A DNA stretch of 24,197 bases. It comes from a virus (Duplodnaviria; Heunggongvirae; Uroviricota; Caudoviricetes). Each line of letters begins with the position of its first letter. Positions within the stretch are counted from its first letter, which is position 1. The position numbers and the translations under genes are program-made. Under the pieces are notes generated by a model. The model saw nothing but the letters and a program-made list of their open reading frames with translations. It was not told the DNA's origin and made no database searches. The stretch spans positions 1 through 24,197 of IMG/VR virus record IMGVR_UViG_2619619133_000006; one strand, written 5' to 3'. Below are positions 7,874 to 24,197 of the stretch, piece after piece.

Positions 7874-7919
7874 CGGTACCAGTTTGTACCCTTGCTTCCG
7901 GCTGGTACCGTTCTTTTTA
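7874..7919 (+). terminator. Terminator-like hairpin (9-bp stem, large loop) followed by TTCTTTTT
   Basis: cggtaccag (7874-7882) pairs with ctggtaccg (7902-7910), then a T-rich run. The 19-nt loop makes this uncertain. Confidence 0.3.
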
Positions 7920-8007
7920 CAAAACAGAGAAGAGCATCACCGGACGACGGGCTCATAAACCAATCCATCCGGGCGGCTGCCACCGCAGGTGTTCTTCTCT
8001 GTTTTGT
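7919..8007. repeat. Long inverted repeat (15-bp perfect arms, 55-nt spacer) just upstream of the yfdP-like gene
   Basis: acaaaacagagaaga (7919-7933) is the exact reverse complement of tcttctctgttttgt (7993-8007). Confidence 0.6.
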
Positions 8008-8055
8008 GGAGAAACTAATCGGCCTTGCAGGGTCGATATGATGAGGAGCAGCAAA

Positions 8056-8418: not shown

Positions 8419-8483
8419 TATCGTTCTTAATTAACTGATTATTTATCTCATCACTGAATATCTTTATATAGTGAGGACTTATT

Positions 8484-9308: not shown

Positions 9309-9320
9309 TTTCATTACTGC

Positions 9321-9342
9321 AAATGCCCCTGCGGGGGCATTT
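9321..9342 (+). other. Perfect 9-bp stem-loop between the yfdQ-like and yfdR-like genes
   Basis: aaatgcccc-tgcg-ggggcattt; no clear U-tract, so possibly an attenuator or mRNA-stability element rather than a terminator. Confidence 0.35.
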
Positions 9343-9435
9343 ATGGAAACGTAATTTACTCAATAATCGCCGGATGGTGAGGGATTCTTTTTACCAGAAT
9401 TCAGCGCGGTGCAGCGCATATACGTGGAGAACAAA

Positions 9436-9972
9436 ATGTCATTTATTAAAACTTTTTCCGGGAAGCATTTTTATTATGACAGGATAAATAAAGACGACAT
9501 CGATATTAACGATATCGCGGTTTCCCTTTCAAATATCTGTCGCTTTGCCGGTCATCTTTCGCACTTCTACAGCGTCGCCCAACATGCGGTTCTTTGCAGC
9601 CAGCTGGTGCCGCAGGAATTTGCTTTTGAAGCGTTAATGCATGATGCAACAGAAGCGTATTGCCAGGACATTCCCGCACCACTGAAACGCCTTCTTCCTG
9701 ACTATAAACAAATGGAAGAAAAAATAGACGCCGTAATCCGTGAGAAATACGGGTTACCCCCGGTTATGAGTACGCCCGTGAAATATGCCGATCTCATCAT
9801 GCTGGCAACCGAACGCCGCGATCTCGGGCTTGATGATGGCTCTTTCTGGCCTGTACTGGAAGGTATCCCGGCAACAGAGATGTTCAACGTGATTCCACTG
9901 GCACCGGGCCATGCCTACGGGATGTTTATGGAACGCTTTAACGAGTTATCGGAGTTACGCAAATGCGCATGA
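9436..9972 (+). CDS. yfdR: YfdR-like HD-domain phosphohydrolase (5'-deoxynucleotidase family)
   Basis: 178-aa product from the internal ATG with GGAGAA RBS; His/Asp-containing motifs (CRFAGHLSHFYSVAQH, LMHDATEAYCQDIP) are consistent with an HD-domain fold. Confidence 0.55.
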   Translation: MSFIKTFSGKHFYYDRINKDDIDINDIAVSLSNICRFAGHLSHFYSVAQHAVLCSQLVPQEFAFEALMHDATEAYCQDIPAPLKRLLPDYKQMEEKIDAVIREKYGLPPVMSTPVKYADLIMLATERRDLGLDDGSFWPVLEGIPATEMFNVIPLAPGHAYGMFMERFNELSELRKCA

Positions 9973-10325
9973 ATGTTTTCGAAATGGAAGGGTTTCTTCG
10001 TGGGAGATGTGTACCGCGAGATCTGAAAGTAAATGAAACAGATGCTGAATACCTGGTGCGTAAATTCGATGCGCTTGAAGCTAAATGTGCAGCACAGGAA
10101 AACAAAGTAATACCAGTGTCAACTGAACTGCCACCAGCAAATGAAAGTGTTTTGTTATTCGATGCTAACGGAGAAGGCTGGCTAATTGGCTGGCGTTCTC
10201 TCTGGTACACCTGGGGACAAAAAGAAACCGGAGAATGGCAGTGGACATTTCAGGTCGGGGACCTTGAAAACGTCAATATCACTCACTGGGCAGTAATGCC
10301 AAAAGCACCGGAGGCTGGAGCATAA
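9963..10325 (+). CDS. yfdS: YfdS-like protein
   Basis: 120-aa ORF overlapping the upstream stop; size and order as in yfdQRST. Confidence 0.45.
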   Translation: MRMNVFEMEGFLRGRCVPRDLKVNETDAEYLVRKFDALEAKCAAQENKVIPVSTELPPANESVLLFDANGEGWLIGWRSLWYTWGQKETGEWQWTFQVGDLENVNITHWAVMPKAPEAGA

Positions 10326-10630
10326 TGACCACTTTTACCGACAAAGAACTGATTAAAGAAATTAAAGAGCGTATCAGCAGCCTTGACGTGCGAGACGATA
10401 TTGAGCGCCGTGCTTATGAAATCGCACTCCTATCTCTGGAAGTAGAACCAGATGAACGCGAAGCTTATGAATTATTCATGGAAAAGCGTTTCGGTGACTT
10501 AGTAGATCGTCGGAGAGCAAAAAACGGCGATAACGAATACATGGCATGGGATATGACTCTCGGTTGGATCGTCTGGCAGCAACGAGCTGGTATCCATTTT
10601 TCAACAATGTCACAGCAAGAGGTGAAATAA
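10325..10630 (+). CDS. yfdT: YfdT-like protein
   Basis: 101-aa ORF; start overlaps the upstream stop (TAATG). Confidence 0.45.
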   Translation: MTTFTDKELIKEIKERISSLDVRDDIERRAYEIALLSLEVEPDEREAYELFMEKRFGDLVDRRRAKNGDNEYMAWDMTLGWIVWQQRAGIHFSTMSQQEVK

Positions 10631-10980
10631 TGGAGCCATACAGCCTCACACTCGATGAGGCCTGTCATTTTCTCAAGATATCCAGACCGACTGCCATTAA
10701 CTGGATACGCACAGGGCGTCTTCAGGCAACACGCAAAGATCCCACTAAGAATAAATCTCCTTACCTCACAACACGACAAGCCTGCATTGCGGCGCTTCAG
10801 TCTCCGCTGCATACTGTCCAGGTGAGCGCGGGTGATGGCATAACAGAGGAAAGAAAATGTCACTCTTCCGCAGAGGTGAAATATGGTACGCCAGTTTCAC
10901 ATTGCCGAACGGTAAAAGATTTAAACAGTCTCTTGGAACAAAGGACAAAAGGCAGGCGACAGAACTCCATGACAAGCTAA
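10630..10980 (+). CDS. Excisionase-like (Xis/AlpA-type HTH) protein; C-terminal extension overlaps int
   Basis: Starts at the ATG overlapping the upstream stop; N-terminus [33 protein letters not shown] is Xis-like and sits immediately upstream of int. The last ~40 codons overlap int and look non-protein-like. Confidence 0.4.
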
Positions 10981-12020
10981 AGGCTGAAGCATGGCGGGGC
11001 AGCAAACTTGGTGAAATACCTGATATAACGTTCGAGGAAGCGTGTGTCAGGTGGCTTGAAGAGAAAGCACATAAAAAATCACTGGACGATGACAAAAGCC
11101 GGATCGGATTCTGGCTTCAACATTTCGCAGGAATGCAACTAAGAGACATTACTGAATCAAAAATTTATTCAGCAATGCAGAAAATGACGAACCGGCGTCA
11201 TGAGGAAAACTGGAAACTCAGGGCAGAAGCATGCAGAAAAAAAGGGAAACCTGTTCCAGAATACACGCCAAAACCAGCGTCCGTTGCAACGAAGGCTACG
11301 CATCTTTCATTTATAAAGGCCCTACTAAGAGCCGCAGAGCGTGAATGGAAAATGCTGGATAAGGCACCAATTATTAAAGTGCCTCAACCAAAGAATAAAC
11401 GGATCCGCTGGCTGGAGCCCCATGAAGCACAAAGGCTGATTGATGAATGTCCGGAGCCATTAAAGTCTGTTGTTGAATTTGCACTGGCAACAGGCTTAAG
11501 ACGCTCGAACATCATCAACCTTGAATGGCAACAAATAGATATGCAGCGCCGGGTGGCATGGATAAACCCAGAAGAGAGTAAATCAAACCGCGCAATCGGC
11601 GTTGCGCTGAATGATACTGCATGTCGCGTTTTGAAAAAACAAATCGGGAATCATCACCGTTGGGTATTTGTGTACAAGGAAAGCTGTACCAAACCAGACG
11701 GAACGAAAGCGCCAACAGTAAGGAAGATGCGGTATGACGCAAACACAGCCTGGAAAGCGGCGCTGAGACGGGCTGGTATTGATGATTTCAGATTTCACGA
11801 CTTGAGACACACCTGGGCAAGTTGGCTGGTTCAAGCCGGAGTCCCGTTGTCAGTGTTACAGGAAATGGGAGGCTGGGAGTCTATCGAAATGGTTCGTCGA
11901 TATGCTCACCTTGCACCTAATCACCTTACCGAACACGCACGGCAAATAGACTCGATCCTGAACCCATCGGTCCCAAATTTGTCCCAGTCAAAAAATAAGG
12001 AAGGTACTAATGATGTGTAA
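10857..12020 (+). CDS. int: Tyrosine integrase, P22 Int / DLP12 IntD type
   Basis: 387-aa ORF; N-terminus [34 protein letters not shown] recalled as the P22/DLP12 integrase family; catalytic motifs [11 protein letters not shown] and MVRRYAHL; 10 bp from the tRNA-Thr core. Confidence 0.85.
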
Positions 12021-12048: not shown

Positions 12049-12196
12049 GGAGTAAAACACTCGATTAATCTCGTGTTAATGCCATCACCTACGACCATTA
12101 CTAATTGATTGAATCTTATAGAAAAAATCATCATTTTCTATGCATTACAATCAATTTTCACATTACAAACGCTCCGACACTTTAGCCGGGGAGTTT

Positions 12197-13474
12197 ATGA
12201 GATACAAGCCCAATCAATACATAATCTGTGATTCTTACGGTAACTACTATTTGAGGATCACGTTGCCTGTGTATATGCAGCCCTTTTTTGAAGGAAAAAG
12301 GACGTTTGTCAGGAGTCTGCATACAAGTAACCTTCGTGTTGCACGTAGAAAGCGTGATCAGATTGCAGATGAATACCATTGTTTACGGGAGAGTGTCGCC
12401 CCTGTAAACAGCACAATAGAGAACACGCTGGAACTGTTACGCAGTAAGGCTAAATACGCCAAAACAGCTACCAGAATGCAAGATACAGCGTCTTCGTGTC
12501 CGTCATTGCTTAAAATTCTTGAAATCTACCTGACAATTAACAGCACGAAGAAGAAGCCAGCCACTTTAGCTAAGGCAAGAAAAGCGGTAGAGATGTTTCT
12601 CTCCTACCGTAAAAAGCCTGATATTGCATTGCAAGATGTGAGCCGCACCACTGTTACAGGCTGGATTGAACACATGCAAAAAACCCTTTCACAACAATCA
12701 ATTGCAAATTATATCAGCCCAATGGCCCAGCTATGGGAGTTAGCTTCATCACGTTACCACGATGCGCCAGAAAGGGCGCTCTCCCCCTGGCGAGGGCATA
12801 GGCTTGATGTGGCACAAAGTAGAGAGAGCTACGAGGCATTTTCTAACAAAGAGCTATTGCAGGTGTTGCAAGTATTTTCCGGTAATTCAGCAGAAAACAA
12901 AGAAATGATGGCTTTGTGTCTTATCGGTGCTTATACAGGTATGCGGATCAATGAGATAGCAAGTCTCACAATAGACGATGTGAAAGAGATCGAAGGTGTG
13001 CTGTGTTTTGAAATCACACAGGGAAAAACGAAAGCTGCGGCACGTGTTGTGCCTGTACATAGCCTTATCACTCCGTTGGTGTTGTCGCTGCGTGAAAAGC
13101 CTCATAATGGCTTTTTGTTCTATCACGCCAGCATTACAGAGCGTGCTGATGGTAAACGTTCCACGTGGCACACGCAGAGATTTACAAGAGCTAAACGAAA
13201 GGCTTTAGGGGAAAAGGGAACAGAAAGGAAGGTGTTTCATTCTCTGAGACACGGAGTAGCACAGCTTCTTGATCGAAATCAAATTCCAGAAGACAGGATC
13301 GCCCTTCTCCTGGGCCATACACGCGGTAATACAGAGACATTCCGCACATATAGCAAGAATGCAGCTTCTCCAGTAGAGCTTAAAAACTATATTGAGCTTC
13401 TACGCTACCCTGAAATAGAGAAAGGCTTATCAATCAATAAAAAATCAAATTTAAGGCGTAAAACAACGCCATAG
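12197..13474 (+). CDS. Tyrosine integrase (second, unrelated family)
   Basis: Likely start at the internal ATG with GGGGAG RBS (track ORF begins at 12140). Catalytic motifs HSLRHGVAQLL and ETFRTYSKN; N-terminus NGNYYLRITLP typical of integrase arm domains. Confidence 0.75.
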   Translation: MRYKPNQYIICDSYGNYYLRITLPVYMQPFFEGKRTFVRSLHTSNLRVARRKRDQIADEYHCLRESVAPVNSTIENTLELLRSKAKYAKTATRMQDTASSCPSLLKILEIYLTINSTKKKPATLAKARKAVEMFLSYRKKPDIALQDVSRTTVTGWIEHMQKTLSQQSIANYISPMAQLWELASSRYHDAPERALSPWRGHRLDVAQSRESYEAFSNKELLQVLQVFSGNSAENKEMMALCLIGAYTGMRINEIASLTIDDVKEIEGVLCFEITQGKTKAAARVVPVHSLITPLVLSLREKPHNGFLFYHASITERADGKRSTWHTQRFTRAKRKALGEKGTERKVFHSLRHGVAQLLDRNQIPEDRIALLLGHTRGNTETFRTYSKNAASPVELKNYIELLRYPEIEKGLSINKKSNLRRKTTP

Positions 13475-13481
13475 ACGCAAT

Positions 13482-13520
13482 AAAGAGGCTTCAACATAGA
13501 TTGGTAGCCTCTTTTATAAT
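13482..13520 (+). terminator. Hairpin with a weak T-tract after the second integrase
   Basis: aagaggct / agcctctt stem with 15-nt loop, followed by TTTATAATT. Confidence 0.35.
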
Positions 13521-13555
13521 TACATCGTTACAGAGCGTTTTAGAGGCATTTACGG

Positions 13556-14269
13556 CTATTCCTGTTTAAAGGCAGGAGTAATAGTGTCTTCACCTTCACT
13601 ACTAGATTTTTCAGTGTTAACACGTTTTTTCATATTAGCCCCGATGTTCTTAGATGGCTGTGTTTTGATAGCTACAGTGTTTACAGTGCCATAAGACACT
13701 AATCTTATTTGCTCAAAGCTAAGATCAAATACCAGAGATTCGCTTGCCTCTTCTGTGTATTCGATGCCTGTTAAAACAACGTTCTCAAAAGTTTTATTTT
13801 CTGTAACAAGAAGAAAAGGCTGTCTACTGTCCATAATCTGATTCAGGTAGTCGATAGCTAATGATCTTCTGTTCCCGTTCACCCCTGCACTCTTTAACAA
13901 GCCAGGATCGCTTTTAATCGGTGTTTCAGTGATCCTTCCCTTAAGAGAAAACTTATTGTTTTTAATTTGAACGTGATCAGACACAGTAGCACCATTCTCT
14001 ACGGGGTAGCTTGTGACATCTGCCGAACGTCTCACGTTCACATCATCTACACTGTCAAAGGCCAGTGCCATATAATTTTCATAAACGTCATTGCCAGAAG
14101 ATGCCAAGCCACTTGTAACAATAGCAAATCCATTCTCTCCTTTTGTTTTATTAGCTTTGCTATTTTCGTTTTTTGTAGAGTTTATATCTTGTTCTGCTTT
14201 GTAAACAGCCTGAACGTGTTGTTCTGGAGTATTTGCTGCACGTATGGTTAAAATTCCCGCCGTTGCCAT
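13556..14269 (-). CDS. Hypothetical protein (virion-protein-like composition)
   Basis: 237-aa ORF with AAGGAAA RBS; rich in N/S/T/G; last gene of the minus-strand cluster, facing the integrase. Confidence 0.4.
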   Translation of the reverse strand: MATAGILTIRAANTPEQHVQAVYKAEQDINSTKNENSKANKTKGENGFAIVTSGLASSGNDVYENYMALAFDSVDDVNVRRSADVTSYPVENGATVSDHVQIKNNKFSLKGRITETPIKSDPGLLKSAGVNGNRRSLAIDYLNQIMDSRQPFLLVTENKTFENVVLTGIEYTEEASESLVFDLSFEQIRLVSYGTVNTVAIKTQPSKNIGANMKKRVNTEKSSSEGEDTITPAFKQE

Positions 14270-14290
14270 AATAATAATTTCCTTGTAATG

Positions 14291-16132
14291 TTATGGCGGA
14301 AATTCCCCGCCGTTAGATTGTCCTGATAAGCTGGTTAATGTTAATGATTTCAAGAAGCTATCCCGACTTGCTCTCGCTGTAAAATCCACATAATCGCTTA
14401 ATCTTGATGTGTCACTATTAATAGTAAGCGGAACCTCTGTTACCACTTCAAATGTAGGATTCAGATTAAACACAGGAGATAAATTATAAGCCGGAGTTGT
14501 CATTGCAAGATTATTTAAAGCACCCTGTTTGAGATTGGTTATCGGTGCTTCATTGACTGACATTTTTACATCTGACACAGAAGATTTATCATCGAAAAGC
14601 AATCCCTTAATCGTGTTAAAGAGAGAATGACTATTATCAGGTGTAGTTGTTGCAGTGCCAGCGCCTTTATATTGATCAGGAACGAGATTAGAAAGATTCT
14701 GTTTCATTCCGTCATTGCTTAATGGCGGTGCATCACCTAAATTTTTCTGAATAGCCTCTGTCTTATCATCATTACGATTAAACCAGTTTACAATCTTCAT
14801 AATAGCTTCAAAGAGACTTCCTACAGCTTCTCCCAGCTTCGTAAAATACGGAGTGAGATTAGAAAGGTTTTTCATAAACTCTTCCGTTACTTTTGGATCG
14901 AGAGATTTCATAAAGCCATCAACAAAGGCGATCCCTTGTGAGTCAGAAAGCCCACTAAGTGCATTATTCAGTTCACGGAATTTAATAACGCTTTCCTGTT
15001 GTGCCTGTGTTACCCAGCGCCCTGATTCTCGTTGTTCTCGTGCTGATTGTTCCACTTCTTTAGCGGAGCGTGTCCAGTATTTAGAGGTGAGCATCAAATC
15101 ATCAGCCAGATCTTCCAGACGACTACCGATCTGCGCATCTGAATAGCCCTTTTTCACCATTCCATTGACAGCTTTACTAACCAGACCAGCCGGATTATCA
15201 GCAAAGTCTTTTAAATCTTTCTTAGTTAAGAAACCTTCGTTAAGTAAAGTATTAATACCTGAATCGCCGCCCTTCCATTCGCCTCGGCCTGTTTTCTTAT
15301 CAACTACATATTCAGCTTCATCATAAGATTTGGTTGCACGTTCACGCACATCTTTCATCTGATCCAGATACTTGCGACGACCTTGATCCCCCATCATTGA
15401 ATCAACGCCGTTTTTATACGCCCATTGTTCAATATTGTTCATCTGGTTAACATCTACACCGCCCAGCTTCGCACGGCTATACAATTCACCCAGCGTTTCA
15501 GCGTTAGCGAAGCTGTTAGCCATAAATTCAGAGGTTTTACTAACAGCCATCACGCCAGCAGCAGCCGTAGCGCCTCCAAATAACAGAGCGCCCATAGTGG
15601 CGGAATTCCCTGATCCTCCCTTAACGGGGGCTAATTGTGCTTTTCTGTTGCCATTAATTTTACGTTGTTGCTGTTGTAAGCGTTTCATCTGGCTATTCAT
15701 ACGTGCAAGCGAGATAGCGCCTTGTTCGTATTGTTTGGCTATCTCACGCGCCTGTGCAATAGCTTTGTATTGTTCCGCTACAGAGAGGCGGTGCATTGCA
15801 CTGATAGAGCTTGAAACATCAAGGAGCTTTAACTCTGCTTTCTCTTTACGTGCTGCTATTTGTGCCTGTTGCCTTGCCTGTGCTCTTGCTGCGGCAGCTT
15901 GTGCTTTTTGATTCTGTTTTTCGTTTTTCGCTTTTTGCTGGGTAATCTTGTCTACTTCACTTTGTGCTTTCTTATAGCCTTTAGTGACACTATCAAACCT
16001 TAATTTAGCTGGCTTGATATTTTCTGTGAATTCTTTTAGGCTTGTAATAGAGTCTTTCGCTTTTTTCAAGCTGTCTTTATCTACACTAAATGTTACTGTG
16101 TTCTTAATTTTAGAAGTGTTAATTTCTAACAT
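14291..16132 (-). CDS. Large hypothetical protein with N-terminal coiled-coil/low-complexity region (structural or ejection-protein-like)
   Basis: 613-aa ORF with GGGGA RBS; N-terminal KAKNEKQNQKAQAAAARAQARQQAQIAARKEKAELK; no catalytic motif recognised. Confidence 0.45.
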   Translation of the reverse strand: MLEINTSKIKNTVTFSVDKDSLKKAKDSITSLKEFTENIKPAKLRFDSVTKGYKKAQSEVDKITQQKAKNEKQNQKAQAAAARAQARQQAQIAARKEKAELKLLDVSSSISAMHRLSVAEQYKAIAQAREIAKQYEQGAISLARMNSQMKRLQQQQRKINGNRKAQLAPVKGGSGNSATMGALLFGGATAAAGVMAVSKTSEFMANSFANAETLGELYSRAKLGGVDVNQMNNIEQWAYKNGVDSMMGDQGRRKYLDQMKDVRERATKSYDEAEYVVDKKTGRGEWKGGDSGINTLLNEGFLTKKDLKDFADNPAGLVSKAVNGMVKKGYSDAQIGSRLEDLADDLMLTSKYWTRSAKEVEQSAREQRESGRWVTQAQQESVIKFRELNNALSGLSDSQGIAFVDGFMKSLDPKVTEEFMKNLSNLTPYFTKLGEAVGSLFEAIMKIVNWFNRNDDKTEAIQKNLGDAPPLSNDGMKQNLSNLVPDQYKGAGTATTTPDNSHSLFNTIKGLLFDDKSSVSDVKMSVNEAPITNLKQGALNNLAMTTPAYNLSPVFNLNPTFEVVTEVPLTINSDTSRLSDYVDFTARASRDSFLKSLTLTSLSGQSNGGEFPP

Positions 16133-16147
16133 TTAAAATCCCCCTTA

Positions 16148-16351
16148 TTAATCATTTTTACAACCTTCTTTACTTAAGAAATGGTGTAGAGCCTGATCAA
16201 TACTCTCGTTTAATCTGAACATACGGGCTTTTACTCCTTCATATGGAACATCTAAGAGAGAACATAGATATTTCAGATTTAACAAGCCTCTAGAATCATT
16301 AGCATCTAAATGTACGTGGACACCATTTTTTGATTTCAGAATCACTTCCAT
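16148..16351 (-). CDS. Small hypothetical protein
   Basis: 67-aa ORF with GAGAGGTGA RBS immediately after the A19 terminator. Confidence 0.35.
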   Translation of the reverse strand: MEVILKSKNGVHVHLDANDSRGLLNLKYLCSLLDVPYEGVKARMFRLNESIDQALHHFLSKEGCKND

Positions 16352-16373
16352 ATTTTAATCACCTCTCAAAATT

Positions 16374-16420
16374 AAAAAAAAAAAAAAAAAAAGGCGAAGC
16401 GTGAATACACGCCACGCCTC
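16374..16420 (-). terminator. Strong intrinsic terminator after the capsid-like gene, with a 19-nt homopolymeric T tract
   Basis: On the minus strand: hairpin ggcgtggcgtg-tatt-cacgcttcgcc (about 10 bp, one mismatch) followed by T19 (A19 on the plus strand, 16374-16392). Confidence 0.6.
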
Positions 16421-16436
16421 TATTACACGTTAAATA

Positions 16437-17465
16437 TTATTTAACAGTGATTTGAACGGAGAAGCCTACACCGTGGTTTACAACCATCTGGCTATTCTCT
16501 GTAACAACGTTAACAGCATCACCACGAGAAGATTCATAGCTATAGCTGTAAACCTCAGTAGGAGCGGCATTAATCAGTTCAAAGGTGCTGGAAGCAGCCC
16601 CGTAGATGTTCTGATATACGTTAGAGCCTTTAGCGAATTTAGGCACAGCTACAGCGTCTGCGGTCATATGTGCAAGGTGTAGCGGATCTACCAGTTTAAC
16701 AACATCAATGTTAGTTCCTGGAATAGTGAACGCTGTCACCCCTGGCAGCAGGTCACGACGCTGATACACAACGTTCCCTTCTTCCAGTGGGCTTACATAC
16801 TGGAATGCGTTTGCCATACCCGCAGAGAATCGAATTGCAGAGAAGGCTTCCGGCTTACAGAAAACAACAATACGCTCTACAGCAGCCGCCTGGCTTTGTG
16901 CTTTCTCGATAATGTCAGTAGCAATCTGATCAAATTCTTTAAAAATCTTCGTGGTGTCAGTGCTGGAAGCGTTCACAGTGGCTTTCATAGCTGATACGTT
17001 AAACAGCTTGCCCCACTCGATAAGAACATCATCAGTTTTAGGCGTGTAAGTTTTGCCAGAGAACAAAGAAGCCGCCAACACGCTCTCTTTAGTGCGCTGA
17101 TACGCTACGTGGTGTTTAGCAACATAGTCAGCATAGATATCAGTGAGTGTTTCCTGGAAATCAGTGCCAGGTTTACGTTTGCCTTGAACATCAGAAGGAC
17201 GGATCACATCTTCACGAAGAAAATACGGGATTTCAATCAGCCATTCTTTACCTTGTTCTCGCTTAGTAACGTTGTGTTCAGAAGAGAAACGAGAGGTTTC
17301 TTTGTTAAAGAGAGATTCGTTGCTTTCGACAAGCTGGGAAACAGCTACTTTATGAGAACTAACGCCCACCGGATCAGTGAAGTCGAGGGTAGAGAGCAGA
17401 TAGTTTCTAGTGCTATGAGCCTGGAAAAGCGGAGCTAAATCAACGTAATCATTACCTAGAATCAT
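16437..17465 (-). CDS. Putative major capsid protein (local similarity to T7 gp10-type capsid protein)
   Basis: 342-aa ORF. VERIVVFCKPEAFSAIRFSAGMANAFQYVSPLEEGNVVYQRRDLLPGVTAFTIPGT parallels T7 gp10A ADRVFYCDPDSYSAILAALMPNAANYAALIDPEKGSIRNVMGFEVVEVPHLT as recalled. Size, strong terminator after it and operon position fit a highly expressed structural gene. Confidence 0.45.
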   Translation of the reverse strand: MILGNDYVDLAPLFQAHSTRNYLLSTLDFTDPVGVSSHKVAVSQLVESNESLFNKETSRFSSEHNVTKREQGKEWLIEIPYFLREDVIRPSDVQGKRKPGTDFQETLTDIYADYVAKHHVAYQRTKESVLAASLFSGKTYTPKTDDVLIEWGKLFNVSAMKATVNASSTDTTKIFKEFDQIATDIIEKAQSQAAAVERIVVFCKPEAFSAIRFSAGMANAFQYVSPLEEGNVVYQRRDLLPGVTAFTIPGTNIDVVKLVDPLHLAHMTADAVAVPKFAKGSNVYQNIYGAASSTFELINAAPTEVYSYSYESSRGDAVNVVTENSQMVVNHGVGFSVQITVK

Positions 17466-17483
17466 TTATTATTATTCCTTTTA

Positions 17484-17846
17484 TTAAGAAGTGAAAACAG
17501 AGTGGAACCCTTCAAGCTGGAAGCCTTTTTTAATTAATGCTGTTTTTGCTGCTTCACTTACAGCATTCAGCGCATCAGCTTTGATGCAGACAAGCCCAGC
17601 ATTGCTACGTAGCACATCTACAGGCTTGTTGTCTCCAGCCGTTAAAAACTCACTCATAACAACATAGATATCATCTCCTGATTCATATTTAGCGCCAGTG
17701 CTTGTGATCAAGTCGCCGCACTCAACATCAGCAGGAAGAGAAGCAAAAACCTTGCTTTCTACAGAGGCAAACGGATCAGTACAATAACTTACAATATCTG
17801 TGAAAGTCTTTCGAACTGGAAATAGAGTGTCTAAATCAATAATCAT
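17484..17846 (-). CDS. Hypothetical protein upstream of the capsid-like gene
   Basis: 120-aa ORF overlapping the upstream stop (ATGA). Confidence 0.4.
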   Translation of the reverse strand: MIIDLDTLFPVRKTFTDIVSYCTDPFASVESKVFASLPADVECGDLITSTGAKYESGDDIYVVMSEFLTAGDNKPVDVLRSNAGLVCIKADALNAVSEAAKTALIKKGFQLEGFHSVFTS

Positions 17847-18055
17847 TTAGTAATCTCCTTAGCTTTTAATTTGATTAATTCATTAAGGGAAGGTGTAGAC
17901 GGAGAAGAAGGAGAAAAATATTTTTCAACACATCTTTCTACTTCCTCGACAGAACACCCAGCGTATTTAGCTACCATTTCGGTAATTTGTGGATTAATTT
18001 TCAGCATTTCATCTTTATACTTGATGATTTGCTCTTTATCATTTAAGAACAACAT
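17843..18055 (-). CDS. Small hypothetical protein
   Basis: 70-aa ORF, first gene after the 18.06-18.39 kb intergenic region. Confidence 0.35.
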   Translation of the reverse strand: MLFLNDKEQIIKYKDEMLKINPQITEMVAKYAGCSVEEVERCVEKYFSPSSPSTPSLNELIKLKAKEITK

Positions 18056-18329
18056 TTATATAAACCTTGTTACCTTGTTTAAAGTAAGAAATACAACTTT
18101 TAAGTTGCATAACGGGCAAAATAAAAGGCAGCATTTAAAGCCGCCTTTGTAATTACCCTATGTTATGCACACTCCAAGATGTATGCATAACAAAGGAAAA
18201 AAGAGGTAATAATGACACAGTATTTACTTAAGGAGGAGAAGCGGGGAGCGGAGATTTTACTCCCCTTTAACGACAAGAAGAATTTTTAATATCGAACCAA
18301 TAAAGGAAAAATAATCACCCCATATAATT

Positions 18330-18358
18330 ATATTAACATACAATAGATGGAATGTCAA
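18330..18358 (-). promoter_or_regulatory. Candidate sigma70 promoter for the capsid-containing operon
   Basis: Minus strand TTGACA (18358-18353), 17-bp spacer, TAATAT (18335-18330). Downstream palindromes CAACTT-TT-AAGTTG (18095-18108) and TTATGCA-N14-TGCATAA (18163-18190) could be operators. Confidence 0.35.
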
Positions 18359-18387
18359 GATATTTTACAACTTTTTTGTTGCTTTTT

Positions 18388-18726
18388 TTATTCTTCTGTG
18401 ATAGTAGCGCCTAAGCGTTGAGCTAGTTCAACAAGTCCGTCTCCTACATAGCGAACGTCCGATTCAAGACCTTCTATCCAGTTTGATAGCTCCCATAGCT
18501 GAGCCGCTGTCAGATATGCGTTCTCACGCTTACAGAGCATCTCTACACGCTTAGAGAGGTGCTCAAAGGCATTCACAGCTAAATCCCAGTGTTTAAACGC
18601 CTCATTTAGTGCCGCTGGCGTGTTTTCTTTGTATGCTTCAAGTTCAGCGCGGTTTAAAGGCAGGAGGTAATCATCCTCATAATAATTAATTAGTGAATAA
18701 ATTGTGTCATACGTGTTTTTGTTCAT
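18388..18726 (-). CDS. Hypothetical protein
   Basis: Likely start at the ATG at 18726 (GGAGA RBS, 2 nt after the upstream stop) rather than the track start at 18753; about 112 aa. Confidence 0.4.
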   Translation of the reverse strand: MNKNTYDTIYSLINYYEDDYLLPLNRAELEAYKENTPAALNEAFKHWDLAVNAFEHLSKRVEMLCKRENAYLTAAQLWELSNWIEGLESDVRYVGDGLVELAQRLGATITEE

Positions 18727-18727
18727 A

Positions 18728-19138
18728 TTAAAAGTCTCCATAGTGATCAACATTATCTAGAATATGGAATTCTGGGACTAAATTATTTAGGCCATTTGTG
18801 GCGAGATAACCAACGTAGTGGTTATAGTCTTCAAATCCTAAAATCTGGTATTTGCGGAGTTCGTCAGAACTAACAATATACTCTTTTCTTTTTCTAGGTT
18901 TCCAGAATACACCAGGTGTTGAAGATAAGATTTCTTGTAATGCGTTAAATTCATCTCCACAAGGCACAGAGGGAGAATGTTCTATGATCTCTGTTTTCCA
19001 TTCGCCAGGGGCGCTATTTTGCTTGGTGAGCGTAACTAGCTCTTTAAAGTCTTTACGTCTTAGAATAGATTTAGGTTTACTTAGAAGAGAAGCTGAATCA
19101 CCGATTTTCTTAACAACGTTGTTTTTTCTTTTTGCCAT
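18728..19138 (-). CDS. Hypothetical basic protein
   Basis: 136-aa ORF; lysine/arginine-rich N-terminus MAKRKNNVVKK. Confidence 0.4.
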   Translation of the reverse strand: MAKRKNNVVKKIGDSASLLSKPKSILRRKDFKELVTLTKQNSAPGEWKTEIIEHSPSVPCGDEFNALQEILSSTPGVFWKPRKRKEYIVSSDELRKYQILGFEDYNHYVGYLATNGLNNLVPEFHILDNVDHYGDF

Positions 19139-19270
19139 TATTTACTTTTCCTTTTCTTTTAAAGGAAAACACCCCGAAGTATGTTTCTAACGTGAGAAAG
19201 AACAATAACCAATACATAGCTACTATCATAATAATGTTTTCCTTTTATATTTTAATTACATAGAGAGATT

Positions 19271-19546
19271 TTAGAGAGTGGAATAGATGAATTCTACTTT
19301 ATCTAGTCTTTTGAGATTGAATGTAGAGAAAGATAATTCTTTAATCTCTATAACACCGAAATTTGATAGCTGTCTAAGCCAGAATTTTAAACCATCTTCA
19401 GAGCAAGCTGCTCGATGTAACACATCGCTATATTTTAGCGGTGTTGGCTTTCCTTTATAGAGGTAAGCAAGTGTTTCGTAGATGCGTTTTCCTGTGTCAT
19501 TACACTGAATTCTGTCTACTTGATTTTTTACTAAATATTGAATCAT
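19271..19546 (-). CDS. Small hypothetical protein
   Basis: 91-aa ORF in the operon. Confidence 0.35.
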   Translation of the reverse strand: MIQYLVKNQVDRIQCNDTGKRIYETLAYLYKGKPTPLKYSDVLHRAACSEDGLKFWLRQLSNFGVIEIKELSFSTFNLKRLDKVEFIYSTL

Positions 19547-19557
19547 AACCCTCCTTA

Positions 19558-20247
19558 TTAAAATGGAATATCAAAGTCTTCATATACTTTGGGATGTTTC
19601 TTAGCAAAATATGCCTCAATACCATTTGGTAGCTTTAACCTGTGCTTATAGGCTAACGATGTTGCAAATTCTATAAAGGATGCCCCTCCTGTTCTGGTAT
19701 TCTTCTGCGTGATAATAAGAGAGGCAAAATTCTCTAACACATCCTCCTCATTATCATTAGCTACCTTTTCATTTGATGAAACAGGTGTTTCTTCCATCTC
19801 CCAGGGTAAAGGCGTATCCCAATCATCAAGAACATCAAAAGAAGGCTGTTTATGGCCTTTAGGTTGTTCCTGTGCTTCTTCTGCCTCAGAAAGATCAGAG
19901 AGTGATGATTCTCCTGGGGGAGTAATATGTGCATCTGTGAGAGGGAGAGCATTGTAAATCAAAGATGAAATATACGGATCAGGATGTGGGGATGTTTCTA
20001 ATAATCCCATCTCTTTAAGATCGTTTATCTTACGTTTAATTGTTGACGCTGAAGACTTAAAAATCTTAGCTAATGTTTCGTGACTTTCATAACAATTAAG
20101 GTTGTTTTCCTGATAACTAAGGAATCGAAAATAAAGCACAATATGTAATAGTTCTAAATCTTTTCCTTGAGGGAATTTATCAGAATAAATCTTTGATACA
20201 TTATCAAACGTGTCATAGTGTTTTGTAAAAGTTAGTTGATTAATCAT
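19558..20247 (-). CDS. Putative DNA-binding / replication-initiator-like protein (N-terminal winged HTH, acidic linker)
   Basis: 229-aa ORF; LELLHIVLYFRFLSYQENNLNCYESHETLAKIFKSSASTIKRKINDLKEMGLLE resembles the HTH of phage/plasmid initiators; lies near the iteron region. Confidence 0.35.
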   Translation of the reverse strand: MINQLTFTKHYDTFDNVSKIYSDKFPQGKDLELLHIVLYFRFLSYQENNLNCYESHETLAKIFKSSASTIKRKINDLKEMGLLETSPHPDPYISSLIYNALPLTDAHITPPGESSLSDLSEAEEAQEQPKGHKQPSFDVLDDWDTPLPWEMEETPVSSNEKVANDNEEDVLENFASLIITQKNTRTGGASFIEFATSLAYKHRLKLPNGIEAYFAKKHPKVYEDFDIPF

Positions 20248-20298
20248 TAAAAATCTCCTTATAAATCACGCTTAATGCGCTACTAAAGTGAATGAGGA

Positions 20299-20466
20299 TC
20301 ACTTACCCTTTTTTTGTTTGATGTTCTCTGCTGCTTCAGTAATGATTTCTAACATCAAATCACTGACCATAATTTGCCTTTTCTTGGCTTCAGCAAATAA
20401 AACCTTGAAGATTTCAGGGTCAACGTGTAGGTAAGTGCGCGGAATTGGTTTCTTAGTTTCGCTCAT
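20299..20466 (-). CDS. Small protein (55 aa), possible DNA-binding regulator
   Basis: Below the ORF-track size cutoff. ATG at 20466-20464 with AGGAGA RBS; MSETKKPIPRTYLHVDPEIFKVLFAEAKKRQIMVSDLMLEIITEAAENIKQKKGK; a beta-strand-then-helix pattern is compatible with ribbon-helix-helix, which is uncertain. Confidence 0.3.
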   Translation of the reverse strand: MSETKKPIPRTYLHVDPEIFKVLFAEAKKRQIMVSDLMLEIITEAAENIKQKKGK

Positions 20467-20485
20467 AGTTTTCTCCTTCTATTCT

Positions 20486-20674
20486 TTACTCTGTTTCAGA
20501 TTCTTTTTCATTTTTTCTTAATTCATCAATAATCTTGAGTGCTTCATTGAAGCAAGCTGCTCGCTCTGGATAACCTCGACTCCTTGCCATATTACGATTC
20601 ATTACTATTTGATGGCGTGTAAGCTCACCTTTTTTAAATGCCTGGATGACGTGCTCAGATGTAAACCATTTCAT
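20486..20674 (-). CDS. Small hypothetical protein (first gene of the minus-strand operon)
   Basis: 62-aa ORF directly downstream of the candidate promoter at about 20.8 kb. Confidence 0.3.
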   Translation of the reverse strand: MKWFTSEHVIQAFKKGELTRHQIVMNRNMARSRGYPERAACFNEALKIIDELRKNEKESETE

Positions 20675-20784
20675 AAAAAACTCCTTATTCAGTTAAAAGA
20701 AAAAACACCTTGCAAGCCTGACGGCTTCAAAGTGCATTGATTTTGATTATTTAGAGAAGAATGTTTTCTGTCCCTCTAATACCT

Positions 20785-20813
20785 ATTATTACATATAAAG
20801 AAACATTTGTCAA
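20785..20813 (-). promoter_or_regulatory. Candidate sigma70 promoter facing the 62-aa gene
   Basis: Minus strand TTGACA (20813-20808), 17-bp spacer, AATAAT (20790-20785). Confidence 0.3.
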
Positions 20814-20905
20814 TACCCTTTCCGAAAAAAATCGATCTTTTTCATGCACTTACATTTTTTCTTAGCTATTCGTGCTCTTCTGTGTAGTGCTATTCTTCCT
20901 TATTG

Positions 20906-20935
20906 TCTAAAACGCTCTAAAACGCTCTAAAACGC
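20906..20935. repeat. Three exact tandem copies of 10-bp TCTAAAACGC
   Basis: Copies at 20906-20915, 20916-20925, 20926-20935. Confidence 0.7.
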
Positions 20936-21349
20936 GTTATAACGAGATTTTGATAAAAGCAATACATTCCCTTATGTAATGGCTGTTTAGCTCGCCAGAG
21001 GCTTATTTAAGGGGCTTATTTTGTATTTGTTAGGTATATGAAAAGGTAATGGTAGATATAAGATAGAGAGTCACTTTATAAAACGCTATGTAAAGCCCTG
21101 TAGTGAGCTTATATGTGTAGGCAATGCGTTTCCATTCCCTACCCTGCTTAATGCTGTTAGAGAAGCATTTAGACCCCTTATTTTTAATTAATTAAAGTAT
21201 CCTCTATACATTCCTGTTATGAAACACCTCTGAATCCTTCATAAAACACATTATGACGCAAAGAACACTTTTCTAAGGTGATTCCCTTCCTGAATGCTGT
21301 TTCTTGCGTCAGAGAGCTACAGAGAGCTTATAAAGCTATTATTAATAAT

Positions 21350-21410
21350 AAAGTAGATAAAGTAAGATAAGTAAGTAAGATAACTAAGATAGATAAGATT
21401 AATAAGATCA
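21350..21410. repeat. AT-rich GATAA / TAAGATAA repeat cluster
   Basis: aagtagataaagtaagataagtaagtaagataactaagatagataagattaataagatcag; multiple GATAA units. Confidence 0.5.
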
Positions 21411-21450
21411 GAATTCTCTTTCGGTGTCGCCTCTGGCTTTTCCACCGAAA

Positions 21451-21617
21451 ACAATTACACGACTACAGAATGTAGGAAGTGGAATTGTATTGAGGCTTAG
21501 TGAAATTACACGAGGAAAGCAGAGTGTAATTGAGCTTTAGCCGCTCTCTCTTCGAGTAATTACACAACTACAGAGAATAACGAGAGTTATTAAGTGTAGG
21601 AAGTGGAATTAAGAGGT
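21451..21617. repeat. Dispersed direct repeats (AATTACAC-N-ACTACAGA and 16-bp TGTAGGAAGTGGAATT, two copies each)
   Basis: TGTAGGAAGTGGAATT at 21471-21486 and 21595-21610 (exact); AATTACAC(G/A)ACTACAGA at about 21453 and 21559; the second copy carries a palindromic insert aataacgagagttatt. Confidence 0.6.
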
Positions 21618-21649
21618 AGAGAGAGTTACACATAAGCAATCAGTATGAT

Positions 21650-21835
21650 TGGTTAGGTGATTACTCTTCTGCGCACAGCGCAATAGTATTTCTTCGTGGG
21701 CGTTATCGCCAACGAAGTTACACGAAGAAAGTAACGCTTTGCTTTCGGTGTGAGCGGAACGGGCCAGCCACGAAGCCCGAAAGGTAGCGGAGTAAGGCTG
21801 CTTGCCAGGGAGTGAAGCTAACGCCGGAAGGCAAA
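21650..21835. ncRNA. GC-rich structured island inside the AT-rich origin-like region; candidate regulatory RNA
   Basis: Hairpins cttcgtgggcg-ttat-cgccaacgaag (21683-21708) and ctttcgg...ccgaaag (21739-21781). The only long ORF here (21609-21842, minus) translates to non-protein-like sequence. Confidence 0.25.
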
Positions 21836-21840
21836 AGATC

Positions 21841-21852
21841 ATATATATATAT
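21841..21852. repeat. (AT)6 dinucleotide repeat; candidate DNA-unwinding element
   Basis: atatatatatat immediately upstream of the 22-bp iterons. Confidence 0.4.
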
Positions 21853-21924
21853 AGATATAAAGAATATTATTATTATGATCTAATTAATAATCTAATATAG
21901 TTTTATTAATAGTCTTATTGTAGT

Positions 21925-22026
21925 TCACAGTGACCTACCCCCTAGCTCACTATGACCTACCCCCTAGCTCACTATGACCTACCCCCTAGCTCATAGTGAA
22001 CTACCCCCTAGGTCACAGTGACCTAT
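21925..22026. repeat. Iteron array A: 4.5 tandem copies of 22-bp TCACTATGACCTACCCCCTAGC
   Basis: Copies at 21925, 21947, 21969, 21991 (variant) and partial at 22013; directly abutting, no spacers. Confidence 0.8.
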
Positions 22027-22082
22027 ATAGTATAAAGAATATTATTTATATTATTTAATTATAGTATTTAATTATAGTATTG

Positions 22083-22184
22083 GTGGAACTCATTTCCTAG
22101 GTAGGTAGGAACTCATTTCCTAAGTAGGTAGGAAACCACTTCCTAGGTTACTTCCTAAATAGATCGGAAATCATTTCCTAGGTG
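22083..22184. repeat. Iteron array B: 4-5 copies of about 23-bp GGAACTCATTTCCTAGGTAG-like unit
   Basis: Copies at about 22085, 22108, 22131, 22166; each contains internal GGAA...TTCC dyad symmetry. Confidence 0.75.
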
Positions 22185-22198
22185 TTATTTATACTTAT

Positions 22199-22262
22199 CG
22201 GGTATCAGTTTTGATAGGGGTATCAGACTTGATAGGGGTAACAGAATTTTGTTAGGGTAAAA
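22199..22262. repeat. Iteron array C: 3-4 copies of about 18-bp TTGATAGGGGTATCAGA
   Basis: Copies at 22211-22227 and 22229-22245, plus partial copies on both sides. Confidence 0.7.
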
Positions 22263-22304
22263 ATCTCTTTAAAAGTTAAGATTAACAGAATTCTGTGGGG
22301 GTGG

Positions 22305-22341
22305 TTCACTATGACCTACCCCTAGTTCACTGTGAGCTACC
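22305..22341. repeat. Two further array-A-type iterons about 280 bp from the main array
   Basis: ttcactatgacctacccctag (22305-22325) and ttcactgtgagctacc (22326-22341). Confidence 0.65.
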
Positions 22342-22470
22342 GTTACATTCAATCATCTTCCGATGTGTAATATCGTTACATTCAATAATTAGTCTATGTA
22401 ACATATCGTTACTACCAACTTTCTTACAGAGAGCATTTCAGATAGCTGAATGTAACCTCTCGTTACATCC
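22340..22470. repeat. Repeat family CGTTACAT(T)C (4 direct copies plus 1 inverted)
   Basis: Copies at about 22340, 22372, 22406 and 22460; inverted copy tgaatgtaacc at 22447. Confidence 0.6.
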
Positions 22471-22936
22471 ATTTGTCACATAGCACTCTGTGTAATGTCT
22501 TTCTATGTGTGTGCCATAATCCCCCTATATTCCCTGTGTAAATCATAGAATATCCCTAACTTATTCCTGTGTAATTCCCTACTAAAAAATCCAATGAAAA
22601 ATGGCTTCAAAGTGCAATGTTAGCTTTCTTCACTTTTACATCACTTTCGCAAAGCCTTGTGTAATGCGGTTTACAGAGCACCATCAGAAATTGTTGGCTA
22701 AAAATTGTTCTGCTTGTTTCTTAATGAGTTTTCTTGTTTGTGCAAATTTTAAAATTTATTTTGTTTTTACAGCCTTATTTCGTGTAATGCGTGGCATAGC
22801 AAGCCCTTTTCTTGTGTTGTCAAGACATTTGGCAACGTTCAAACATCTGTTTAGAAATGCCAAATTATTGATCTAACAAATAAACCTGTATAAACAGAAC
22901 ACCATTTAATCTATTCCCCTGTGTATCCATTAGGCA

Positions 22937-23045
22937 TACCAAATGAATACAGCTAAATCGTGTAATATTCCGTACCCATAAGGCTTGAAACAGACCAAAT
23001 GAATACGATATACTCATTTGCATTGAAGTAGTGCCAAATCGATAC
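22937..23045. promoter_or_regulatory. Candidate recombinase-binding (res-like) site upstream of the serine recombinase gene
   Basis: Direct repeats ACCAAATGAATAC (22937-22949, 22997-23009) and related GCCAAATCGATAC (about 23031), 15-120 bp upstream of the recombinase start. Confidence 0.3.
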
Positions 23046-23059
23046 ATTAAGAGGATTTT

Positions 23060-23599
23060 ATGAGCAATATCGGTTATAAGCGTGTGAGCACTGTAGATCA
23101 GAACACTGATCGCCAGCTTGCAGGAGTAACGCTTGATAAAGTCTTTGAAGATAAGCTGTCAGGTAAAGACACTAACCGTCCAGGCTTACAAGCGTGTTTA
23201 TCCTATCTGAGAGAAGGCGACACCTTACACGTGCACTCTCTCGATCGTTTAGGGCGTAACACCTTAGACATTCTTGCCTTAGTGGAACAACTTAATAATC
23301 GTGGTGTAATTGTTCGCTTTCACAAAGAAGGGATCATTGCAGACATTACAAGCGCGATGGGAAAGATGATGCTTACGATGTTGTCGGCAGTTGCAACGTG
23401 TGAACGTGAACTGATGTTAGAGCGTAAACGAGAAGCGCAAGCCGTCAATCCTACAAAGCGTGGTAAAGGTAAAGCAGTGGATAGGGAAGGTATAAAGAAA
23501 GCCCTTTCTGATGGCCTGTCAGTGCGTAAAACCGCCGAGAGCTTTAATGTTGCTCCTTCAACGGTACAGCGAATTAAGAAGGAAGAAGAGGAGGCGTAA
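23060..23599 (+). CDS. Small serine recombinase (resolvase/invertase family)
   Basis: 179-aa ORF; catalytic N-terminus MSNIGYKRVSTVDQNTDRQ with Ser in the RVST motif; aligns in pattern with Hin/Gin/Tn3 resolvase; C-terminal HTH LSVRKTAESFNVAPSTVQRI. Confidence 0.85.
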   Translation: MSNIGYKRVSTVDQNTDRQLAGVTLDKVFEDKLSGKDTNRPGLQACLSYLREGDTLHVHSLDRLGRNTLDILALVEQLNNRGVIVRFHKEGIIADITSAMGKMMLTMLSAVATCERELMLERKREAQAVNPTKRGKGKAVDREGIKKALSDGLSVRKTAESFNVAPSTVQRIKKEEEEA

Positions 23600-23710
23600 T
23601 GCCTCCTTGATATTTGGGGATTCTGGATTTTCCAGATCGGGGGGCGCTGAAAATCGCGTTAAGCACCTCTCGCAATCTAGCCATAAGGGAAGGAATATAG
23701 GTATTTAGAT

Positions 23711-23750
23711 GTATTTATAGCTATTTATGGCTATTTATGGCTATTTATTT
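23711..23750. repeat. Four to five tandem 10-bp repeats (G/C)TATTTAT(G/A)G
   Basis: gtatttatag, ctatttatgg, ctatttatgg, ctatttattt in tandem; 10-bp phasing. Confidence 0.65.
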
Positions 23751-24038
23751 TTTATTTACCTTTATTTAAAAATAACCTTATAAATCAATAAGATACAGAA
23801 CTATCTGTTTATATTTTAACCAATTAAATCAAGTTTAATACCCTTAAATAACCTGAAAATAGCCTTAAATACCCCAATAATTAATTTTAAGGTTTTCCGT
23901 GTTCTCTTCTGCATTATGAAAATGCAAAATAAGGCACAAAACAAGCGCACAGACGCATTAAACACACATCACCTATACATCCCTATACCAAGCAATGAAA
24001 ACAGCGTTAGAATGCGTCCTGTTGGGTTCTGGAGATTT

Positions 24039-24197
24039 TCAGAAATCCTCTCTAAGCCATTTCAACTCACTAAGGAGTTTTCTTTCTTCGTTCTCTCGCT
24101 GTTTACGCTCTAGCCAGGCTTTTCCTTCTGGCGTAGACAGGAACTTACGAGCGTGAATCTTGCGGTTATTACGTTTTATAGCTGCAATGTTTTTCAT
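24039..24197 (-). CDS. Small basic hypothetical protein (52 aa), start codon at the window edge
   Basis: Minus-strand ATG at 24197-24195; MKNIAAIKRNNRKIHARKFLSTPEGKAWLERKQRENEERKLLSELKWLREDF; below the ORF-track cutoff. The start may lie further upstream outside the window. Confidence 0.25.
   Translation of the reverse strand: MKNIAAIKRNNRKIHARKFLSTPEGKAWLERKQRENEERKLLSELKWLREDF

Follow-up and report, generated by a model that had tools for sequence, protein, structure and literature searches.

What is the meaning of a short word that recurs again and again on one strand of a region without genes? The question is raised by a 24,197-nt sequence assigned to a virus of the Caudoviricetes (IMG/VR record IMGVR_UViG_2619619133_000006, positions 1 to 24,197; the whole stretch is called the window here). 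In this window the word YGTGTAAT is repeated from 22364 to 22966, within the gene-free 2.4 kb (20675-23059) of an island found in Escherichia coli. An earlier note, made from the letters alone, had taken the copies for binding sites of a partition or replication protein. The analyses presented here indicate that the motif words are real, conserved, outward-pointing signals flanking a putative replication origin. It is possible, although we would not call it probable, that they are oriented binding sites for a 91-amino-acid winged-helix protein of the island, which would control the origin together with the divergent operons.

Six exact plus-strand copies and one TGTGTAAA variant were located in the reported span, at the positions given before for six of the seven; the first copy starts at 22364 and not at 22365, one base off. 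Local dinucleotide-preserving shuffles (n = 2000; 22340-23060) never reached six copies, with 0.14 expected, and the recurrence is therefore not an effect of composition. Across the whole window, 11 exact matches were counted against 1.55 expected (0 of 100 shuffles), while outside the non-coding region the motif occurs in the island at background frequency. The copies, and the conserved block that lies among them, are listed below; L001-L004 and L009-L030 denote relatives of the island.

21454-21723, minus strand: left arm, with ATTACAC at 21454, 21505 and 21559 and GTTACAC at 21625 and 21717
21524, plus strand: plus-strand copy in the left arm, forming with 21505 the palindrome AATTACAC-N12-GTGTAATT
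22364-22371, plus strand: TGTGTAAT copy 1, which overlaps an S-type iteron palindrome, TGTAA-N5-TTACA (22366-22380); kept in L002, L010 and L011
22489-22496, plus strand: TGTGTAAT copy 2, with GTGCAAT as its orthologue in all type-B winged-helix loci
22535-22542, plus strand: variant TGTGTAAA, also in L004
22561-22705, plus strand: conserved block, present in every relative, even in otherwise unalignable non-coding regions, and bracketed by copies 3 and 4
22568-22575, plus strand: TGTGTAAT copy 3, at the left edge of the region's most conserved block
22612-22618, plus strand: GTGCAAT copy within the conserved block
22658-22665, plus strand: TGTGTAAT copy 4, forming with TTTACA a TGTAA-N6-TTACA palindrome (22660-22675)
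22781-22788, plus strand: CGTGTAAT copy 5, in a segment co-inherited with resolvase allele A
22959-22966, plus strand: CGTGTAAT copy 6, in the spacer that separates subsites I and II of the res-like site

That the word is always on the plus strand, as had been stated, is true inside the reported span, but its mirror image on the minus strand (21454-21723) was overlooked. It consists of five GTGTAA(T/C) copies, at the left-arm starts listed above, and the association between arm and strand is clear (Fisher p = 0.005). With minus-strand copies on the left and plus-strand copies on the right, the array points outwards around a central block. The sites are dispersed over 0.3-0.7 kb on each side, and those of the right arm are irregularly spaced, at 125, 46, 33, 90, 123 and 178 bp. 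The CC(C)T prefix mentioned previously is present at three or four of the seven sites and is not general. Around 55 distinct sites taken from relatives, the flanks carried little information except for T at -1 and a depletion of G from -4 to -1, and the copies are thus not remnants of longer duplications.

The limits of the motif were examined by a scan of all 21 single-base variants. Polarity was retained only by GTGTAAT, GTGCAAT, ATGTAAT and GTGTAAC, for which the concordant and discordant copies numbered 20:2, 16:0, 8:0 and 3:0, respectively; transversion variants showed no polarity (9:23). Variation is tolerated at positions 1, 4 and 7 only, and there as transitions only. Since only these four words keep the polarity, the real core is RTGYAAY.

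Many of the 55 distinct sites can also be read as minimal open reading frames, GTG-TAA or ATG-TAA; six of the 12 distinct GTGCAAT sites read GTG-CAA-TGA/TAA, and the tolerated positions 1, 4 and 7 are three bases apart. This is probably a coincidence, and the idea of a mini-gene was rejected, as the upstream sequence is poor in G and without a Shine-Dalgarno sequence. Similarly, the open reading frame at 22601-22876 was discarded as a coding candidate because it is not conserved in L001 or L003, and Pfam and PHROGs scans of the small open reading frames returned nothing.

How far the polarity extends was judged from 26 non-coding regions from genomes and IMG/VR and 33 metagenomic ones, about 59 in all. 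The minus-left, plus-right order of the generalised motif was present in every one of them, for example as ---+-+++++++ or -----++++++. The exceptions at single sites are the plus-strand partner in the left-arm palindrome, one far-left ATGTAAT, and a minus match at the +36 site (L059, L070, metagenomic). As only two or three lineages are represented, the related regions should not be taken as independent counts. Between clade A (ATTACAC) and clade B (ATTGCAC) no alignment of the left arms is possible, and yet their polarity is identical. In some loci the resolvase-proximal segment has been replaced by unrelated DNA, and the replacement again bears plus-strand copies. In the alignable part of the region, moreover, the cores were retained where the flanks had diverged. 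These three patterns argue for selection on the motif. The arrays are independent both of the type of the replication initiator (Rep) and of the resolvase allele.

The features on which the placement of the origin depends are as follows.

21836-22470, no strand assigned: central block and putative origin, with AT-rich stretches and several repeat families
21921-22025 (cores), in the central block: 22-bp palindromic iterons, 4.5 copies, with an inverted copy at 22323-22339
22085-22178, in the central block: GGAAnTCATTTCC repeats with a 23-bp period
22200-22235, in the central block: GGGTATCAG repeats
22366-22467, in the central block: TGTAAC-N5-GTTAC palindromes
19558-20247, minus strand: Rep-like initiator (HTH_36, lambda-O-like, 229 amino acids) with an exchangeable N-terminal domain

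The central block was taken as the origin because its repeat families covary with the N-terminal domain types of Rep, and on this comparison of sequences it is most likely where replication starts. Three unrelated types of this domain, W, K and S, are carried on a common linker (W and K are 25-33% identical to S). Among the 30 loci compared, type K was accompanied by GGAA-type repeats (2-5 copies) in 14 of 14, type S by TGTAAC palindromes (3-4 copies) in five of five, and type W by the 22-bp cores (1-7 copies) in 11 of 11. The window and L001, which are 95% identical, differ in a 177-bp block with the 22-bp iterons and in a swapped Rep N-terminal domain. All three iteron sets are present in the window although the encoded Rep is of W type only. 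The 22-bp repeats have the usual properties of iterons, being 17-22 bp long, phased and beside an AT-rich element. The RTGYAAY arms do not: the core is 7-8 bp, the spacing is irregular, the motif occurs with W, K and S alike, and the arm type is uncoupled from Rep. Of the earlier proposal, then, a non-random, ordered array that most likely belongs to a replication-control region is upheld, but the copies are not the initiator's own sites, and a role in partition, discussed below, finds no support.

If not the initiator, which protein could read the motif? One candidate is encoded next to rep.

19271-19546, minus strand: 91-amino-acid winged-helix protein, candidate motif reader, encoded just downstream of rep

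Its AlphaFold model (pLDDT 87) is a winged helix-turn-helix, which was matched by Foldseek to the DNA-binding domains of CodY, ArsR, HlyU, BlaI, MarR, TubR and AspA. The protein occurs in two main types, A and B, with one further B2 locus (L004). In all of the about 36 scorable loci, the left arm was of the ATTACAC kind where the protein was of type A and of the ATTGCAC kind where it was of type B. Likewise, the orthologue of the site at 22490 was GTGTAAT in 15 of 15 type-A loci and GTGCAAT in 16 of 16 type-B loci. The Rep N-terminal domain and the 62-amino-acid gene, both lying between the 91-amino-acid gene and the arm, occurred in mixed combinations with the arm type, as did the resolvase allele. 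This covariation suggests that the 91-amino-acid protein reads the motif. The 62-amino-acid protein was also considered as reader and rejected; it is conserved, but no PDB structure was significantly similar to its AlphaFold model, a three-helix fold, and its type varies independently of the arm type.

Several points weigh against the 91-amino-acid protein as reader. The sites at 22568 and 22658 are GTGTAAT with both protein types, so that its specificity would be loose. The association amounts essentially to one deep split (A against B, plus the B2 locus), and gene and arm are less than 2 kb apart; shared ancestry of the backbone combined with exchange of the rep cassette could yield the same association without any function. 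The Foldseek matches are weak, with E-values of 2e-3 and above, and a winged-helix fold is no proof of sequence-specific binding. Furthermore, the operon-matching polarity and the mirrored purine/pyrimidine skew fit a strand-specific signal equally well. Both the binding of the motif by this protein and the effect of such binding are therefore put forward tentatively.

The GTGTAAT copies form the right half of a mirror-polar RTGYAAY array, with about five minus-strand sites on the left and seven to nine plus-strand sites on the right, that brackets the putative iteron-type origin within the 2.4-kb non-coding control region of the island. Should the 91-amino-acid protein be the reader, the copies would serve as oriented, mostly monomer-type sites for this small island-encoded DNA-binding protein. 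Bound on both flanks in opposite polarity, it might organise or occlude the flanks of the origin and the two divergent transcription units, and its occupancy could gate origin firing and expression, as copy control or immunity, until the helper phage arrives.

The resolvase side of the region has to be described before the other explanations are weighed.

23060-23599, plus strand: serine recombinase, closest to gamma-delta/Tn3 resolvases (E 2e-29)
22921-23046, no strand assigned: res-like site, with three CCAAATGAATACA and inverted partners TGTATCCATTAGG, specific to resolvase allele A

The res-like half-sites are 13 bp long, inverted and arranged in several subsites directly upstream of the resolvase gene; the final 50 bp of the reported span are shared with this site. 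Resolvase allele B, 63% identical to A, has GTGTAGTGAT/ATCACyACAC sites instead; in L003 a res-like region was located at 9591-9707. A res site should consist of inverted dimer subsites, no more than about 140 bp upstream of its resolvase gene, and should change together with the recombinase. This was found for the CCAAATGAATACA family and not for GTGTAAT, whose core sites are common to both alleles and to loci without resolvase. In 11 of 26 loci, about 400 bp of non-coding DNA stand in place of resolvase and res, and the breakpoint is the outer edge of subsite I.

Much of the above could also be produced by a strand-specific signal in RNA or single-stranded DNA, an explanation that we consider unlikely but the strongest competitor. 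It might act in transcripts running across the arms, where antisense RNA, a leader or an R-loop would regulate the origin or the leftward operon in the manner of the CI RNA of P4 or the non-coding RNAs of the Vibrio cholerae satellites called PLE; or it might be a lagging-strand template cue, for priming or helicase loading, for forks leaving the origin. The switch of polarity coincides exactly with the putative origin, and on either side the motif runs with the flanking operons and with the outgoing forks; on the plus strand, purines predominate in the left arm and pyrimidines in the right. Strong folding was computed for the left arm (z -5.1 and -6.8; in clade B, -4.3 and -6.7), as against weak folding for the right arm, where the reported copies lie (z -1.8 and -2.5). 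The transition-only variation at three positions is compatible with wobble pairing; in contrast, arm copies are complementary to one another over no more than 8-9 nt. A 17-nt repeat, GGCTTCAAAGTGCAwTG, joins the 5' leader of the leftward operon (20723-20740) and the conserved block (22604-22621), and the leader and block copies would give complementary RNAs if transcribed oppositely. In PLE, non-coding RNAs are abundant and have antisense homology to leaders (PMC7567579). On the other hand, Rfam 15 gave no match, either at the gathering score or with the limit relaxed to E<=1, the arms showed no outward sigma-70 promoter or terminator that was convincing, and the genome of the likely helper shows neither enrichment of the motif nor strand bias (30 copies, about 31 expected). 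Less probable still are auxiliary sites or half-sites of the Rep initiator, by which copy number would be controlled through titration or handcuffing on the model of F incB/incC and P1 incC/incA. RTGTAAY is half of the TGTAAC-N5-GTTAC palindrome, apparently the S-type Rep iteron; the copy at 22364 belongs to such a palindrome, that at 22658 pairs with TTTACA, and opposed iteron clusters are an established plasmid layout. However, single polar sites also occur in W- and K-type loci, whose Rep N-terminal domains are unrelated to S, and arm type does not follow Rep type. Decayed palindromes would leave halves in random orientation rather than in strict polarity, and sites of 7-8 bp at irregular spacing are not phased repeats of 17-22 bp.

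The copies adjoin the resolvase gene and might be accessory sites of the gamma-delta-like resolvase, extending res. The half-site consensus of gamma-delta and Tn3 is TGTCYNNTA, which TGTGTAATA resembles; the local res half-sites have an outer TGTAT that differs from TGTAA in a single base, and the left half of res subsite I in L012 is CCCCTGTGTAATCC. Nevertheless, we regard this as improbable: the res-like site is distinct, has 13-bp half-sites of its own and switches with the allele, which the core motif does not do; arrays persist in the 11 loci without resolvase and res, the left arm is 1.4 kb distant, and the polarity is centred on the origin and not on res. A similarly low probability is given to the absence of any present function, in which case the copies would be relics of old duplications or of mutational bias in a repeat-rich region. 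The small number of lineages, and hence of independent observations, leaves room for it. It is opposed by the shuffles, none of the 2000 having reached the observed count, by the polarity maintained in non-homologous arms and replacement segments, by cores that stay where flanks diverge, by the lack of polarity in transversion variants, and by the lack of any longer repeat unit around the cores. The partition array supposed in the earlier note is the least credible of all. Its sites are short and repeated, as would be expected of a centromere-like array; ATTACAC is one base from box A of P1 parS, ATTTCAC; and the winged-helix candidate has the same fold as the centromere binders TubR and AspA, and as many regulators. 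However, no partition NTPase of the ParA, ParM or TubZ type was detected in Pfam and PHROGs scans of the open reading frames of the island, the element is chromosomally integrated, and the sites are dispersed with opposite polarity on the two sides instead of forming a compact array.

Other known sites were compared with the motif and discarded. When (a)ATTACAC(g) is aligned on CAC to the DnaA box TTATNCACA, four of the eight specified positions are mismatched, and the relaxed DnaA consensus expects C or A at the position where the motif varies between A and G. The core of the Tus-Ter barrier, GTTGTAAC, is in none of the listed sites and has only TGTAA in common with them. By-eye comparison with the consensuses of CRP, TyrR, GalR, CpxR, OmpR, Fis and IHF gave no fit, and no GTGTAAT site was called as a sigma-70 promoter. 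A promoter or primase word of the helper was also rejected, as the copies in the ESCO8 genome, at the expected number given above, are divided into 14 co-directional with genes and 16 opposed; no comparable polar word was found in the non-coding region of the helper.

The organisation of the region most resembles that of PLE, the satellite of V. cholerae whose helper is ICP1. Both have a large gene-free region between divergent clusters (2.7-3 kb in PLE and 2.4 kb in the island) with several repeat families, both are satellites of a virulent myovirus (the island being satellite-like, as judged from its sequence), and Rep/origin modules look exchangeable in both. Of the four repeat families in the PLE region, repeat 3 alone serves as RepA iteron and origin, and the rest are unexplained (PMC7145576; PMC7567579). 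The resemblance is one of organisation only. No sequence or protein homology was detected, and a mirror-polar short motif in PLE is not described in these two papers (PMC7145576, PMC7567579). In addition, PLE has a large serine integrase whereas the island has a tyrosine integrase and a small resolvase.

In F incB/incC, P1 incC/incA and P4 ori/crr, two opposed clusters of protein-binding repeats around the replication module control initiation. Those repeats are the initiator's own sites, of 19-22 bp (in P4, 8-bp type I), whereas the island motif is independent of the initiator type, 7-8 bp long and irregularly spaced, and flanks the origin itself. At oriC of E. coli, the left and right DnaA-oligomerisation regions are two opposed arrays of short asymmetric sites, tightly spaced around a core; the island sites are not DnaA boxes and lie tens to hundreds of bp apart. 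To our knowledge, the sites of the opposed clusters in F, P1, P4 and oriC are always the initiator's own. With Tn3 and gamma-delta res, the island shares an inverted-repeat region of several subsites directly upstream of a gamma-delta-like resolvase gene, but the subsites are CCAAATGAATACA/TGTATCCATTAGG and not GTGTAAT, and the arrays persist without the resolvase. The array of the island is real and conserved, its mirror polarity is unusual, and the satellite family to which it belongs seems not to have been described before.

The window from 12140 to 24197 covers most of an island of about 12.5 kb, bounded in its relatives by the direct repeat tggtgccgataataggagt. It is integrated at the tRNA-Thr gene thrW beside proA; other copies are at tRNA-Gly or in the thiM leader. 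The gene content consists of a tyrosine integrase, a Dit-like tail protein, a 613-amino-acid tape-measure-like protein, a gpE-type major capsid protein, several small proteins, Rep and two small leader genes, after which follow the gene-free 2.4 kb and the serine recombinase; no terminase or portal was found in it. The remaining features are these.

20299-20674, minus strand: two small genes (55 and 62 amino acids) at the head of the leftward operon
20813 to 20785: sigma-70-like promoter of the leftward operon
22827-22865, no strand assigned: inverted repeat ATTTGGCA-N23-TGCCAAAT, which phage ESCO8 also has in its non-coding region
23636-23675, plus strand: 40-nt stretch identical to part of the non-coding region in phi92-like phages

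The island looks like a phage satellite of an apparently undescribed family, presumably dependent on a helper. The tape-measure-like protein is about 35% identical to those of phi92/phAPEC8-like phages (Stephanstirmvirinae). When the non-coding and recombinase part (3.5 kb, 20700-24197) was used as query, some part of it turned up in 722 of the 5426 complete E. coli genomes, about 13%; a scan of species-representative genomes gave only three loci, the query being almost absent outside E. coli, and the family therefore looks confined to Escherichia. Packaged or circular forms were sought in order to place the genome ends, but the IMG/VR matches are prophage calls in isolate genomes, no metagenome contig was circular, and the Logan contigs end within the repeat region. 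Our literature search found no paper on the motif, on the element or on satellites of Stephanstirmvirinae.

A second island lies directly to the left (window 1-12020) with a P4-type integrase at 10857-12020; 120 bp separate the two integrase genes, and the islands stand in tandem at thrW. In L014 (NZ_AP017617 990814-1000601) the module of rep, winged-helix gene, non-coding region and resolvase is part of a much smaller element without capsid genes, which has an HNH endonuclease and a different integrase and is located beside the thiM thiamine pyrophosphate riboswitch, duplicated at both ends.

Three collinear matches connect the region with the gene-free 1.7 kb of ESCO8 (61161-62889; L005): 40 nt at 100% (window 23636-23675, L005 2501-2540), 38 nt at 82% (22826-22863, L005 2318-2355; the inverted repeat listed above) and 22 nt at 95% (21168-21189, L005 1280-1301). 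These short matches may be mimicry of a cis-acting site of the helper, either origin or pac. GC skew did not serve to place this helper region at an origin, as it only follows transcription. The ESCO8 region also contains repeated AATGATAATCATT palindromes (L005 1350-1420 and 2440-2470), which resemble the Fur box of E. coli. To the right of the resolvase (23700-23745 and 23837-23878), three to four copies of GCTATTTATG and two of AATAGCCTTAAATACC were seen, both with 11-mer matches in the helper's non-coding region.

Other observations concern the non-coding DNA itself. The left arm (21405-21835; L003 8590-8995) is structured on both strands although the clades are unalignable, and a GCGCACAGCGC hairpin and TGTGAGCGG are common to the left arms of both clades; the arm could be a structured RNA or a DNA-hairpin element. 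The modules of the non-coding region are set apart by low-complexity DNA in which TAA and TAG abound in every frame, such as aagtagataaagtaagataagtaagtaagataactaagatag or ctaactaacatcaacaaacaaaaac (window 21343-21405; L003 8850-8880; L004 7960-8000 and 8540-8650). Upstream of the leftward promoter, TCTAAAACGC is repeated three times (20906-20935).

Taken as a whole, the picture would be that of an undescribed E. coli satellite family of virulent phi92/phAPEC8-like phages, with a modular multi-iteron origin and a mirror-polar 7-bp bracket, read by the 91-amino-acid protein, that licenses or blocks the origin and the divergent operons independently of the initiator/iteron cassette. As a complete scheme this is doubtful, more so than the binding of the motif by the protein. 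If true, it would mean a second, initiator-independent layer of origin control in an element with a freely exchanged Rep/iteron cassette, and it would explain how replication specificity can be swapped on one constant regulatory scaffold. Such swapping may help the island to escape from counter-measures of the helper, as has been described for ICP1 and PLE. The apparent targets of the island, phi92/phAPEC8-like phages, are much favoured as candidates for phage therapy; because of these apparent targets and of the share of E. coli genomes that carry some part of the region, the control region is of practical interest for phage resistance and transduction. Its parts can now be named: the candidate protein, the two variants of the motif, the putative origin as mapped here, and the res site.

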